A stretch of DNA of 64,000 nucleotides. It comes from Candidatus Nanoarchaeia archaeon. Its GTDB lineage: Archaea > Nanobdellota > Nanobdellia > Woesearchaeales > JANQNC01. Position numbers and translations under genes: made by a program. The stretch's first letter is position 1. Each line of letters begins with the position of its first letter. The notes beneath the pieces are model-generated. The model worked only from the letters and a program-made list of their open reading frames with translations, ran no database searches and was not told where the DNA came from. The DNA is taken from positions 273,876-337,875 of the forward strand of contig JANQNC010000001.1 in the NCBI GenBank assembly GCA_028279745.1, written 5' to 3'. Of this stretch, positions 53,065-58,389 are shown in pieces.

Positions 53065-53226
53065 TTAAATTTTTTTATTGAATATTCTACTTTTTATACC
53101 ATTGAAACTTATAATGATTAAGCTTACCAAACCTAAAAGAATGACATAAGGGTTAATGCCAAGTTCGTGGTGTGCTTTTCGGTTCACCATTAAAGTGGTG
53201 CCAGAAAACCTTGTTTTCTGTGTCAT
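53065..53226 (-). CDS. Small membrane ORF (53 aa) translationally coupled to hypC
   Basis: Absent from the ORF track. My translation is MTQKTRFSGTTLMVNRKAHHELGINPYVILLGLVSLIIISFNGIKSRIFNKKI, with one TM helix; its ATG overlaps the hypC stop as ATGA. Confidence 0.3.
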   Translation of the reverse strand: MTQKTRFSGTTLMVNRKAHHELGINPYVILLGLVSLIIISFNGIKSRIFNKKI

Positions 53227-53432
53227 TTGAAGTTCTCCTGGTATGTCTTTAATGCAGTTATCGCTTCCTCTTCGGGGATCTTCATTACAACAACCCCTCC
53301 TTGAATGATGACATAGTCCCCCTCTTTATAGATATCTTCAACTATTGCACCTTCTCGTTTTTCTACTCCGTAATCTACGATAGCTTTGTCGTCTTTTATT
53401 TCAACTATCTTTCCTGGGACCGCTAGACACAT
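53223..53432 (-). CDS. hypC: [NiFe] hydrogenase maturation factor HypC/HybG
   Basis: N-terminal MCLAVPGKIVEI (MC(L/I)(A/G)(I/V)P signature), 69 aa. Confidence 0.85.
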   Translation of the reverse strand: MCLAVPGKIVEIKDDKAIVDYGVEKREGAIVEDIYKEGDYVIIQGGVVVMKIPEEEAITALKTYQENFK

Positions 53433-53434
53433 TT

Positions 53435-54250
53435 TTACACCTTAAACATCATCCTAAAAATCTTATCTAACCACTTATCTGGCATTATCCATTTCAAAAA
53501 CATAAACATCTTTCCATCCATCGGAAGAACATATCTTGTTTTTGGATTATTTGACCTGCTTGCTTTATAGATTGCGTTAGCGATAACTTCTCCCGTAGGA
53601 GATCTTTTTGCCCTCTTGACAAAATCAGTTTTTAATGCATTAGTCAACTTCCTGTAGGGTCTAGTCACTTTAACCTTGCCTAGGTGCTGCCAAGCAACTC
53701 GGTATAGATCTGTCTTAATAAAGCCCGGCTCAATCATCACAACGTTTATACCGAGATCTGAAACTTCTTGTCTTAGTGCATCTAATAATCCTTCTAATGC
53801 AAATTTCGAAGCGTTATACCAAGTAATTATGCCTGCCGCAGCTCTTCCTGCAGTAGAAGTTACATTTATTATGTGTCCTGATTTTTGTTTACGCATATGT
53901 GGCAGGACTTCTTTTATTAATCTAGCATATGCAAAAGTGTTTGTTTCTAGTTGGGCTCTTGCTTGATCCATCGTAACATCTTCTAATGAACCATACTGAG
54001 CATACCCTGCATTGTTTACTAACACATCTATTCTTCCTTGCTCTTTGATTAATTTTTTAACAGCACTTTTCACTTGTTTATCATTTCTTACATCAGTATA
54101 TAAAGTTTTACCCCCTAACTTTTCTAGGTCTTTGTCTGATTTTGCTCTAAAGTCAATGGCATATACTATATGCCCTTCTTTAAGAAACCGTTTAGCAGTA
54201 GCTTTACCTATTCCAGAAAATGCACCGGTTATTAAAACAACTTTTTTCAT
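53435..54250 (-). CDS. SDR-family short-chain dehydrogenase
   Basis: VVLITGAFSGIGKATAKRF (TGxxxGIG), NNAG, YNASKFALEG (YxxxK). Confidence 0.85.
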   Translation of the reverse strand: MKKVVLITGAFSGIGKATAKRFLKEGHIVYAIDFRAKSDKDLEKLGGKTLYTDVRNDKQVKSAVKKLIKEQGRIDVLVNNAGYAQYGSLEDVTMDQARAQLETNTFAYARLIKEVLPHMRKQKSGHIINVTSTAGRAAAGIITWYNASKFALEGLLDALRQEVSDLGINVVMIEPGFIKTDLYRVAWQHLGKVKVTRPYRKLTNALKTDFVKRAKRSPTGEVIANAIYKASRSNNPKTRYVLPMDGKMFMFLKWIMPDKWLDKIFRMMFKV

Positions 54251-55861: not shown

Positions 55862-56616
55862 TTTTTCTTAGCATCCTCTTTCTCTTTATATTTTAAACCT
55901 TCGAAAGCATCAATCCTTTGTTTGATGAATTTCTCATCATACCCTTTCTCTTTTAAAACTTTGATCATAAGTTCAAAATTAGCATCCTGAGCAGGGCCTC
56001 TGCAACCCCAACAAACTAATCCACCATTAGTGCAGACTGAGTTACAGCCCCCATTAGTTACAGGACCAAGACACGGAAGACCTTTTTCTAGTAAACAAGG
56101 ATTTCCGTTATGCCTGCACTCAATACAAACGGGTTTTGAGTACATCAAAGGTTTTTTGCCTCTTAATAAGTCATCAATAAACCCAAGAATCTCTTTTTTA
56201 TCTGGAGGACAGCCTTGGATGTAATAATCTACTTTAACATATTTGTCAACAGGACTTGGATCAACATCCGTAATCTCTAAAGCTTTATGGTAAATTAATG
56301 GTTGAATGTTTTCAGGAGGTGTGAAGTTTCTTAATGCTGGAACTCCTCCAGTAGTTGCACACGCACCTAAAGCTATGAAAATATCACATTGATCTCTGAT
56401 CTTTTTTACCATCTCTTCATCGTGCTTAGATGTAACAACCCCTTCAAAGAAAACAATGTCTAAATGCCCGTCATACACTTTTTCTTTAATGAACGGAAAA
56501 CTTTTTACATCTATCTTTTCTAAAACTCCCAATAACTCTTCCTCGTTAAATATAACTGAAAGTAGACAACCTTGACATCCTGTCACGCTATAAAATCCTA
56601 CTTTAGGCTTAGTCAT
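55849..56616 (-). CDS. [NiFe] hydrogenase small (delta) subunit, group 3b
   Basis: MTKPKVGFYSVTGCQGCLLS, GACATTGG, GCPP motifs; start set at MTKPK. Confidence 0.85.
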   Translation of the reverse strand: MTKPKVGFYSVTGCQGCLLSVIFNEEELLGVLEKIDVKSFPFIKEKVYDGHLDIVFFEGVVTSKHDEEMVKKIRDQCDIFIALGACATTGGVPALRNFTPPENIQPLIYHKALEITDVDPSPVDKYVKVDYYIQGCPPDKKEILGFIDDLLRGKKPLMYSKPVCIECRHNGNPCLLEKGLPCLGPVTNGGCNSVCTNGGLVCWGCRGPAQDANFELMIKVLKEKGYDEKFIKQRIDAFEGLKYKEKEDAKKKWLE

Positions 56617-57412
56617 TTTTGAAATTCTCCAGCTCATCCCATCTAAAGACAGGACCATCTAAACAAGTATATTTGCCATGAATCATGCAATGACCACACA
56701 TTCCTAAAGCACATTGCATCAATCTTTCAGCACTTAAGAAAATTTGTTCCGATTTGAAACCTTTTTCTTTCAGTAATCCTATTATCTTGTTGATCATGAT
56801 AGGTGGACCGCAAAGGAATGCAACAGTGTTTTCGCTGTTTATATCTAGTTCTTTCATCCTTTCCATCAGATAACCCGTTTTCATCTCAAAACAAGCCAGG
56901 TCATCACCTTCTTCTGCTTTGTCAACAGACATCATCAAATTGTATTTATTTTTCCATTCAGGAGTTTCTCTTCTGAATAAAACATCATGAACACTTCTAT
57001 AACCGAAGAAAAGATCGATGTTTTGGTAGTCTTCTCTGTTCTGGTCAACATAATCAATAATCCCTTTTAGTGGAGCAACACCACAGCCGCCACCTATGAT
57101 CAAAAGGTTGTTGCCTTTTAGCTCTTGCATAGGATAACCTTTACCGTAAGGACCTCTGACCCATATCTCGTCACCTTCTTTTAGCTTTCCAAGACTGTTT
57201 GTTACTGAGCCAATCTCTCTAACGTTTAGTTTCATGTGATCTTTTGAATATGAACAGATAGAGATCGGAGCTTCACCAATACCTGGGAGAGATACTTGAA
57301 TGAACTGACCTGGTTCGTGGTCAGTTTTGAAATCTATCACGATAGAGAAATTATCAGGGCTTTCTCTATAAAATTCTAAAATTTTTACCTTTTGTGGGAT
57401 GTAGTCATTCAT
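56609..57412 (-). CDS. Sulfhydrogenase gamma subunit (FAD/NAD(P)-binding, 2Fe-2S)
   Basis: FNR-like fold and C-terminal CALGMCGHCMIHGKYTCLDGPVF cluster motif. Confidence 0.8.
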   Translation of the reverse strand: MNDYIPQKVKILEFYRESPDNFSIVIDFKTDHEPGQFIQVSLPGIGEAPISICSYSKDHMKLNVREIGSVTNSLGKLKEGDEIWVRGPYGKGYPMQELKGNNLLIIGGGCGVAPLKGIIDYVDQNREDYQNIDLFFGYRSVHDVLFRRETPEWKNKYNLMMSVDKAEEGDDLACFEMKTGYLMERMKELDINSENTVAFLCGPPIMINKIIGLLKEKGFKSEQIFLSAERLMQCALGMCGHCMIHGKYTCLDGPVFRWDELENFKND

Positions 57413-58389
57413 TTTTTAGCTTCCTTCTTCATTTCATTAATTTTAGTTACAAAGTCTATCTTTGTAGGACAGTGTCTTATGCATCTGCCACATCCAGTGC
57501 ATAAAGTTTTTCCAAACTTATCTTTAAAGTATTGGAGTTGGTGATAAATTCTATGTTTGAACCTGTCAATCTGAGCTTTTCTGAAAATATGATCTCCTGC
57601 AACCCTGCTGAAACATTCAAGCTGGCATTCTGAAAGGAATCTTTTCTTCTCCACAGAACCGTCTTGTTTAGGAACATCTCTAAACTCAAAACAGAAACAG
57701 GTAGGACATAAAGCATTACATTGACCACATGCAAGGCAGTCTTTAACTAAAGCACTCCAACCTCTGTTGTTGGTGTAAATATCGTCTATGTCATGAGAAT
57801 CTAACTTAAGCTGATTATCTATTTCCTTATCTTCTTTGGTCATCTTGTAATCAGACTCTTCAAACAAGTCTTGATTATCTTTTATTATGGTTTTACCTTT
57901 ATCAGAACCTACTTCAACCAAATAGTGATCTGCTCTCTTGTAAAAGAAAAGATCATATTCAACTTCTAAGTCAACCGATTGGCAGAAACAATATTCATCA
58001 CCACATTGTTTCTGATGATATCCAAAAAGAGTTACTTTTTTTCTTCTTTCGTTATAATAAGGATCTGCATATTTGTTGTTCATGGCGATATCATGCTTCT
58101 TGATTGATGCCAAGTCACACATTCTAAGTCCTAATAATATCTTTTCTTTAATCTTGGATAAATCTGGTTCAACCACTTCACCCTCTTTATGGGTAAGGAT
58201 AAGTTCTCCTTGTTTTAGGAAATTATTTTTTGCTGTGTATTCAGTCAGCACATCTGCGTTAAATTCTTCCGCACTTTTTAGCTTTTCAAAAGAGGACACT
58301 TTACCTTTTACGGGCGCAAAAACATCAGTCTTTTGTATTAGAGAATCTAAGAATTTGTTGTAGTTCTCAAAACTAATCGCGTATACCAT
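57409..58389 (-). CDS. Sulfhydrogenase beta subunit (Fe-S)
   Basis: CLACGQCNALCPTCFC and CTGCGRCIRHCP ferredoxin-like motifs. Confidence 0.8.
   Translation of the reverse strand: MVYAISFENYNKFLDSLIQKTDVFAPVKGKVSSFEKLKSAEEFNADVLTEYTAKNNFLKQGELILTHKEGEVVEPDLSKIKEKILLGLRMCDLASIKKHDIAMNNKYADPYYNERRKKVTLFGYHQKQCGDEYCFCQSVDLEVEYDLFFYKRADHYLVEVGSDKGKTIIKDNQDLFEESDYKMTKEDKEIDNQLKLDSHDIDDIYTNNRGWSALVKDCLACGQCNALCPTCFCFEFRDVPKQDGSVEKKRFLSECQLECFSRVAGDHIFRKAQIDRFKHRIYHQLQYFKDKFGKTLCTGCGRCIRHCPTKIDFVTKINEMKKEAKK

Follow-up and report, generated by a model that had tools for sequence, protein, structure and literature searches.

The minus strand of a 64,000-nucleotide stretch of DNA from a Candidatus Nanoarchaeia archaeon (contig JANQNC010000001.1; the whole stretch is called the window below) carries, from position 58389 down to 52563, nine co-directional genes in the order hydB-hydG-hydD-hydA-hypA-SDR-hypC-orf53-orf158. 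We consider it likely, with a probability of roughly 85%, that they specify a standard NAD(P)(H)-linked cytoplasmic [NiFe] hydrogenase of group 3b, that its maturation depends on HypA, HypC, and a HycI-like protease together with Hyp proteins whose genes lie elsewhere, and that the gene for a short-chain dehydrogenase/reductase (SDR) and the two membrane open reading frames (ORFs) orf53 and orf158 are co-transcribed passengers. The gene content of the string is genuine rather than a chance pattern.

The Four Hydrogenase Subunits and Their Class

The string was recovered from the ORF listing and from profile searches, in which Pfam and NCBIfam agree on the identities of the hyd, hyp, and SDR genes; it is present as a first-pass annotation of the interval 53065-58389 had described it, the embedded hypA, SDR, and hypC genes included. 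The hydrogenase itself is encoded on the minus strand by hydB (57409..58389; beta subunit of 326 residues with 16 Cys and an AsrA-like 4Fe-4S dicluster domain), hydG (56609..57412; gamma subunit of 267 residues, AsrB-like, with an FAD/NAD(P)-binding and a [2Fe-2S] domain), hydD (55849..56616; delta or small subunit, 255 residues counted from M15, the longest ORF reaching 56658) and hydA (54563..55861; [NiFe] large or alpha subunit, 432 residues). This is the Pyrococcus-type order that the annotation had recognized. We compared each gene of the window with 80 loci anchored on hydA in species-representative genomes, each with 10-kb flanks; the order is conserved in 71-78 of them, hydB accompanying hydA in 71 and hydG in 74. 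Junctions along the nine genes consist of overlaps of 4-13 nt and gaps of at most 25 nt. The overlaps measure 4 nt between hydB and hydG, 8 nt between hydG and hydD, 13 nt between hydD and hydA, 8 nt between hydA and hypA (ATGCATGA), and 4 nt both between hypA and SDR and between hypC and orf53 (ATGA), while SDR and hypC are 2 nt apart and orf53 and orf158 25 nt. Overlaps within hydBGDA had been noted correctly, but their range, given as 4-8 nt, extends to 13 nt. A candidate TATA box of archaeal type, TTTATAAA (58426..58433, minus strand), precedes the hydB ATG by about 40 nt. Across the whole window, neither Rfam nor a tRNA scan returned a match; a sigma-70 scan, whose model is irrelevant to archaea, gave 23 sites against 23 expected and hence no enrichment; and a terminator scan gave 7 sites against 3.4 expected, none of them convincing at gene ends.

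The class of the enzyme was assigned by ranking model and structure scores, a proxy for the HydDB classifier or a reference phylogeny, and each proxy used supports a group 3b [NiFe] hydrogenase of the sulfhydrogenase type, as had been proposed from the sequence alone. For HydA, the best NCBIfam models are ShyA/HydA (264 bits, against 179 for FrhA, 169 for VhuA, and 143 for NiFeSe), and the best structures in the PDB are the alpha subunits of Pyrococcus furiosus sulfhydrogenase I (SHI; 9nez, 250 bits) and of Thermococcus kodakarensis Hyh (5yxy, 244 bits), followed at a distance by MvhA (195 bits), FrhA (148 bits), and HoxH (141 bits). The protein has the L1 motif RICGICSCAH at residues 61-70 and the L2 motif DPCFSCSTH at 411-419, both invariant among 27 homologues, and a C-terminal tail of 13 residues beyond L2. 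HydD matches Pfam Oxidored_q6 and scores 187-188 bits with the ShyD/HydD models, against 115 bits with VhuG. HydB matches Pfam Fer4_22 (4e-28), and its best NCBIfam model is sulfhyd_ShyB (181 bits), followed by AsrA (153 bits). HydG contains the Pfam domains NAD_binding_1 and DHODB_Fe-S_bind, and in NCBIfam it scores 258 bits with AsrB, 210 bits with the cytochrome-c3 hydrogenase gamma subunit, and about 166 bits with ShyC/HydG.

Two other assignments were weighed against these scores. We regard membership in a different group 3 class (F420-reducing 3a, Mvh-type 3c, or NAD-linked 3d) as very improbable, even though HydA also matches FrhA, VhuA/MvhA, and HoxH models and structures significantly and some of its relatives are labelled "coenzyme F420-reducing hydrogenase alpha" in the databases: the 3b references are 55-110 bits ahead for HydA, its partners are AsrA/AsrB-like beta and gamma subunits and not FrhB, MvhD, or HoxFU, and F420 production is not known from DPANN archaea. 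More improbable still is that hydB and hydG represent the AsrAB portion of an anaerobic sulfite reductase instead of hydrogenase subunits. The score of HydG with AsrB, higher than that with ShyC/HydG, and the AsrA match of HydB would fit such a reading, but the AsrA and AsrB scores are both under the family cut-offs, no AsrC is found in the window, and the two genes overlap with those of the NiFe small and large subunits, with which they co-occur in 71-74 of the 80 loci. Homology of the sulfhydrogenase beta and gamma subunits to AsrAB is a known trait of group 3b, and the higher AsrB score of HydG fits the AsrAB-like nature of these subunits.

The group 3b enzyme of the window is predicted to be cytoplasmic, as the first-pass annotation had stated, since its subunits carry neither a Tat motif nor a membrane segment. 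The RRxF motif of a Tat (twin-arginine translocation) signal was looked for in HydD and is absent, as is any transmembrane (TM) segment; likewise, HydB, HydD, and HydA have no TM segment, their highest mean hydropathy over 19 residues being below 1.5. HydG has a maximum of 1.61, just touching the threshold of 1.6, at the glycine-rich stretch of its nucleotide-binding site.

With the P. furiosus sulfhydrogenases I and II (hydBGDA/shyBCDA) and the cytosolic NiFe hydrogenase Hyh of T. kodakarensis (PDB 9nez, 9e15, and 5yxy), the window shares the beta-gamma-delta-alpha order, the four subunit families, the L1/L2 cysteine motifs, the cytoplasmic location, and a C-terminal tail that requires an endopeptidase. 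The differences are that hypA and hypC are here joined into the hydrogenase gene string and that all four subunits score far under the equivalog cut-offs of SHI and SHII (e.g., 264 bits for alpha, against 700-880), which suggests a distant DPANN branch of group 3b and not an orthologue of SHI or SHII. By analogy with the Pyrococcus and Thermococcus enzymes, the heterotetramer encoded by hydBGDA, which are probably co-transcribed with hypA and hypC, would exchange electrons with NAD(P)(H) in its gamma subunit, which binds FAD and [2Fe-2S]; the Fe-S clusters that beta and delta carry would relay them to and from the Ni-Fe site in alpha. Its predicted activity is NAD(P)H-linked H2 evolution or uptake, together with S0 reduction; if the physiological direction is also like that of these enzymes, reducing equivalents would be disposed of, or recovered, as H2, which would serve redox balance in a fermentative cell.

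The host would be a DPANN archaeon of the Woesearchaeota type. HydA homologues of 45-75% identity come almost all from Woesearchaeota/Nanoarchaeota metagenome-assembled genomes, and the window contains archaeal marker genes (archease, RtcB, a Taw1-like wyosine enzyme, Elp3, the primase PriS, and diphthamide synthase). An earlier study described cytosolic group 3b hydrogenases from several subgroups of Woesearchaeota (Huang et al. 2021, PMC8421398), with which the window has both lineage and enzyme class in common.

Genes Found with hydA in Related Genomes

When all ORFs of the 80 hydA-anchored neighborhoods were clustered without supervision, nine families recurred, namely hydBGDA, the HycI-like protein, the EamA permease, hypA, DUF6390, and hypC, and these only; SDR, orf53, orf158, and the DAHP synthase gene of the window are not among them. 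The HycI-like protein is present in 58 loci, hypA in 46, EamA in 44, hypC in 41, and DUF6390 in 28; in the subset of 60 loci whose sequence continues downstream of hydA for 3 kb or more, the corresponding counts are 44, 42, 36, 37, and 25. Both hypA and hypC occur in 40 loci, and they are directly adjacent in 30 of these. The usual order in relatives is hydBGDA> hycI> eamA> DUF6390> <hypC <hypA, the HycI-like gene often following hydA directly.

In the window, three of these companions are found apart from hydA, on the plus strand: the genes for the HycI-like protein (49228..49602; 124 residues), an EamA/DMT-family permease (49648..50577; 309 residues with eight hydrophobic segments; Pfam EamA, 1.3e-37), and DUF6390 (50564..51274; 236 residues). 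Spanning 49228-51274, they converge on the hydrogenase string at a distance of 3.3 kb. The first-pass annotation overlooked these conserved accessory genes, which lie just outside the interval that it had considered and on the opposite strand. A single inversion of the block that follows hydA in relatives yields the backbone of the window, hydA> hypA> hypC> <DUF6390 <eamA <hycI, to which are added here SDR, orf53, orf158, and the gene for a DAHP synthase (51420..52481, plus strand; Pfam DAHP_synth_1, 6e-56; NCBIfam PRK08673, 334 bits). The latter has no match in any of the 80 loci and is an unrelated gene between the two parts into which the hydrogenase genes are divided here. Inversion of the downstream block and the insertions that it received would thus have left SDR, orf53, and orf158 within a compact co-directional string.

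Maturation Proteins Encoded in the Window

The nickel metallochaperone gene hypA (54247..54570, minus strand) encodes a protein that matches Pfam HypA (2.7e-10; 40.7 bits, cut-off 28.9; alignment from M7) and NCBIfam PRK00762 and that contains the zinc site CKC...CPKC (CxC...CxxC). Its longest ORF reaches 54588, but we place the start at the ATG at 54570, which gives 107 residues, because the canonical N-terminus MHE (MHEHAM...) and the HypA model both begin there. HypC (53223..53432, minus strand; 69 residues) matches Pfam HupF_HypC (1.7e-14; 54 bits, cut-off 28.5) and starts with MCLAVPGK, Cys2 being present. These matches, like those of the SDR described below, bear out the identities given at first pass. 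In Escherichia coli HypC, the highly conserved His51 plays an important part in efficient interaction and function with HypD (PMC9002611). In the HypC of the window, the equivalent residue is replaced by Gln44 (IIQGG), and this holds more widely for Woesearchaeota, in which 26 of 28 HypC sequences lack a histidine in that column, 24 having Q or S and two M or T.

A scan that covered nearly all window ORFs of at least 110 residues found no HypB, HypD, HypE, or HypF, and no window ORF is long enough for HypF; the earlier statement that HypD, HypE, and HypF are missing from the window agrees with this. HypD genes, recognized by their CGGHT and GPGCPVC motifs, do occur in three Woesearchaeota loci (L003 10096-11136, L021 15461-16471, and L066 14826-15851), directly after hypC in L003 and L021, which indicates that the lineage is not devoid of the canonical maturation machinery although the window has no HypD.

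The HycI-like ORF matches Pfam HycI at 5e-4 with 20.3 bits, under the cut-off of 23. The top PDB matches of its family profile are E. coli HycI (2i8l, 2e85), though with an E-value of 0.35, and its invariant D15, D55, and H81 sit in the aligned GNxxxxDD, DV, and HD motifs, at metal-ligand positions. Together with its frequent place right after hydA, this makes the protein, encoded 5 kb away, the likely candidate for processing the C-terminal tail of HydA. Maturation would then proceed with delivery of Ni by HypA and of the Fe(CN)2CO group by HypC, after which the 13-residue tail would be cut by the HycI-like protease; the other Hyp proteins would be encoded elsewhere.

We also observed divergent, 3b-like large subunits that have no tail: those beside DUF6390 in four metagenome loci (L125, L141, L150, and L152) stop at the histidine of DPCxxCxxH, and no HycI-like match was found in these loci, which together suggest protease-independent maturation in the lineages concerned. 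In L150, the small and large subunits are apparently fused into one ORF of 564 residues.

DUF6390 and the EamA Permease

The DUF6390 protein (PF19927; 5e-45, 154.3 bits against a cut-off of 25, residues 6-239) has a helical N-terminal domain and a HypC-like C-terminal domain. A profile built from 22 DUF6390 proteins was aligned by hhalign with the local HypC family, and its C-terminal ~80 residues match HypC with 92.8% probability (E-value 4e-7). In this alignment, the near-invariant Cys148 falls on Cys2 of HypC and the invariant His206, in the motif GDxVAxHWGFA, on the position of His51; the corresponding motif of the HypC/HybG/HupF family is GDxVLVHxGFA. The only near-significant matches in the PDB are again HypC (2z1c and 3vyr at the top; T. 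kodakarensis HypC). DUF6390 differs from HypC in that its cysteine is internal (~148), behind a conserved helical domain of about 145 residues with the motifs CGP, EAYWxGN, and PHH, whereas functional HypC is defined by a free N-terminal cysteine, which DUF6390 does not have. A structure model predicted from the single DUF6390 sequence had a pLDDT of 38.5. Two ideas on this architecture were considered and discarded. The N-terminal domain is not a HypD substitute, hhalign giving a 0.2% probability with Woesearchaeota HypD and HypD genes existing in the lineage, and intein-like Asn-Cys self-cleavage that would expose the cysteine was dropped because the preceding residue is not conserved (it is Lys in the window protein).

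A shorter family of about 150 residues, which we call c9, is found in 16 loci that lack DUF6390, often right after hypC and next to EamA (e.g., L005 590-1036, L006 640-1182, and L007 2528-2989, in addition to 13 further loci). By hhalign it matches DUF6390 with 97.4% and HypC with 97.0% probability, and 10 of 13 members match Pfam HupF_HypC. Judged by these profile alignments, c9 is related to DUF6390 but shorter, its C-terminus resembles HypC more clearly, and it links DUF6390 and HypC. The HypC-like domains of both families keep the invariant histidine, which the canonical Woesearchaeota HypC has mostly lost; with the cysteine, it belongs to the iron-binding site of HypC.

The association was also examined in the reverse direction, by a DUF6390-anchored scan of metagenome contigs that gave 80 loci with a GC content of 0.30-0.79. 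EamA lies directly upstream of DUF6390 in 45 of them, and hypC is present in 36. Of the 38 loci that span 6 kb or more, 21-22 contain genes for the NiFe large or small subunit. The scan revealed no further recurrent family. Seven divergent large subunits from this set all have sulfhydrogenase alpha models as best match. Two of the loci contain tandem DUF6390 paralogues (L033 12575-13935 and L071 12425-13884), the second copy being shorter and more divergent.

These data show the homology of DUF6390 to the HypC domain and its two-way neighborhood association with the hydrogenase, and in diverse metagenomic lineages the EamA-DUF6390 pair goes with 3b-type hydrogenases. The pair appears to be undescribed: our literature search returned nothing on DUF6390 and nothing on HypC together with EamA and a hydrogenase. 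A search that combined HypC with His51 was likewise empty. We tentatively propose, at odds that we put a little under even, that DUF6390 or c9 and the DMT permease act as a dedicated module, as yet undescribed, that serves the maturation or metal supply of group 3b hydrogenases in many uncultured lineages. The part that DUF6390 would play in it is a matter of speculation; it might be a second Fe(CN)2CO scaffold, a chaperone specific for the large subunit, or a protein that handles Ni or Fe together with the permease.

The SDR Gene and the Two Membrane ORFs

The SDR gene (53435..54250, minus strand) lies between hypA and hypC and encodes a classical enzyme of 271 residues (Pfam adh_short, 1e-48, 165 bits), with the motifs TGAFSGIG (TGxxxGxG) at 8, NNAG at 79, and YNASK (YxxxK) at 145 intact. 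It matches the NCBIfam "oxidoreductase" subfamily PRK06182 over its full length and shares its TGxxxGxG, NNAG, and S-Y-K motifs, but its score of 297 bits is just under the subfamily cut-off of 305; to our knowledge, no link between this subfamily and hydrogenases is on record. Because adjacency of hypA and hypC is normal in relatives, the SDR gene occupies a junction that is usually uninterrupted. It is missing from 79 of the 80 hydA-anchored loci, the single match being weak (26% identity) and 6 kb away; this match belongs to the 60 loci with at least 3 kb of downstream sequence, among which neither orf53 nor orf158 has a genuine counterpart. A handful of homologues at 53-69% identity are followed by thousands of bacterial ones at about 45%, and the five closest (59-69% identity) lie near a tRNA gene, an alpha/beta hydrolase gene, DUF362-ferredoxin genes, or UvrB/thermosome genes, with no hyd or hyp gene beside any of them. 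A recent horizontal insertion was considered and rejected, as the GC content, third-position GC (GC3), and codon score of the gene match those of its neighbors; around the insertion, we found only chance-level matches of 12-22 nt and neither target-site duplications nor mobile-element ends. The intact motifs and the host-like GC and codon usage suggest a functional, long-resident gene, whose product would be a host-adapted NAD(P)-dependent oxidoreductase.

Hydropathy analysis bears out the topology expected for the membrane ORFs. The product of orf53 (53065..53226, minus strand; 53 residues) has a single TM segment, and its start overlaps the hypC stop as ATGA, both as first described. The product of orf158 (52563..53039, minus strand; 158 residues), the 4-TM protein that had been said to close the string, exists and has four TM segments, but its gene lies just outside the interval 53065-58389 in which it had been placed. 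Its family, with the motifs DGxFH...SPDWxIA...HxxMG, has 42 matches at E < 1e-3 among 1.84e9 representative proteins; the best of them, P0242 (57% identity), adjoins a MamF/MmsF-like gene and not hyp genes, and orf158 is missing from all 80 hydA-anchored and all 80 DUF6390-anchored loci. From this distribution, it is best described as a member of a real, rare, uncharacterized membrane family that is unrelated to the hydrogenase.

Whether orf53 is a gene at all is less clear. That it is a chance ORF within the spacer between hypC and orf158 has, in our estimate, somewhat less than an even chance. Among 5.8e9 proteins it matches only itself, none of the 160 related loci of the two sets has a genuine counterpart, it is only 53 residues long, and its GC content is the lowest of the string (0.315). 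Its codon-usage log-odds is 0.12, while those of the hyd and hyp genes are 0.28-0.42. On the other hand, this in-frame score is positive while those of the other five frames are negative, an ATGA overlap such as that with hypC is typical of translational coupling, and the ORF takes up nearly the whole spacer and specifies a well-defined TM helix with positive charges on either side. It may or may not be expressed.

The first-pass annotation had suggested that the SDR and the membrane ORFs could mark an undescribed electron-transfer or maturation accessory. Such a novel hydrogenase module, acting as a membrane anchor, an electron outlet, or a maturation step, would agree with the position of the three genes within the operon, overlapping their neighbors or spaced by 2-25 nt, with an SDR whose apparently intact catalytic site could use NAD(P)H made by the 3b enzyme, and with the membership of orf158 in a real conserved family. 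We nevertheless consider it very unlikely: apart from the single weak SDR match, none of the three is found beside hydrogenase genes in the hydA-anchored and DUF6390-anchored loci, the close SDR homologues and the nearest orf158 homologue lie in unrelated contexts, orf53 is an orphan, and the hydrogenase subunits have no features of membrane interaction. Small ORFs that are not conserved and SDR homologues in unrelated contexts are also the outcomes that had been named beforehand as refuting the suggestion. As no relative carries the SDR gene or the two membrane genes inside its hydrogenase cluster, all three look like lineage-specific passengers and not conserved parts of the hydrogenase.

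Some observations weigh against treating these genes as mere passengers of a standard 3b operon. Their tight packing suggests that the hydrogenase transcript here also includes the SDR gene and probably the two small ORFs; the host-like GC and codon usage of the SDR gene indicate that there was no recent foreign insertion; and a local, lineage-specific coupling, for example through an SDR that consumes NAD(P)H, is possible. The comparison covers relatives outside the genus, the closest with usable context being L019, with 68% HydA identity, and the main residual uncertainty is that the SDR may have been recruited to the hydrogenase very locally.

Surroundings of the Hydrogenase Genes

Two divergent sets of 2-oxoacid:ferredoxin oxidoreductase genes are found in the window, at 27017-29603 (minus strand; a POR/TPP-domain fusion and a beta subunit) and at 29760-32070 (plus strand; alpha, beta, and gamma subunits), and they fit a fermentative, ferredoxin-reducing lifestyle. 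At 13825-15403 (minus strand), a second cysteine desulfurase gene and an adjoining gene for a NifU-like scaffold constitute a minimal Fe-S assembly pair, relevant to the supply of Fe-S clusters, of which the hydrogenase and the oxidoreductases contain many. Aromatic amino-acid genes are scattered about the hydrogenase: in addition to the DAHP synthase, which carries a ferredoxin-like regulatory domain, there are a prephenate dehydrogenase/dehydratase fusion (44463-45770, minus strand) and a weak chorismate mutase-like match (61098-61811, minus strand), a biosynthetic capacity that is unusual for a DPANN genome.

Just upstream of the hydrogenase, 58930-61046 (minus strand) contains a class-V aminotransferase/cysteine desulfurase-like gene and a gene for a membrane-anchored DsbA/thioredoxin-like protein, a pair that three related loci (L022, L066, and L079) also have at no more than 10 kb from hydA. 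Divergent from hydB, 58507-58905 (plus strand) encodes a 132-residue, Cys-containing protein with an N-terminal signal-like helix and no family match. Its C-terminus, PEFGPG...hydrophobic...KRK, is reminiscent of archaeal PEF/PGF-CTERM sorting signals. Farther away, 612-9686 (plus strand) is a long co-directional glycosylation cluster with genes for GT4 and GT2 glycosyltransferases, a polysaccharide deacetylase, a GNAT protein, a Gfo/Idh/MocA oxidoreductase, and an NAD-dependent epimerase.

Implications for Group 3b Hydrogenases of DPANN Archaea

Group 3b enzymes were already on record for this lineage, to which the window contributes a further operon whose unusual inserts lack conservation. 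In compact DPANN genomes, the tight packing of an operon-like string does not by itself imply a functional linkage between its genes. If an undescribed accessory is to be sought at this locus, the candidate is the EamA-DUF6390 pair and not the SDR or the membrane ORFs. The reproducible set found around 3b hydrogenases, made of the HycI-like protease, the EamA permease, and DUF6390 with its HypC domain, on which the literature searched yielded nothing, is a concrete and testable candidate for research on hydrogenase maturation.

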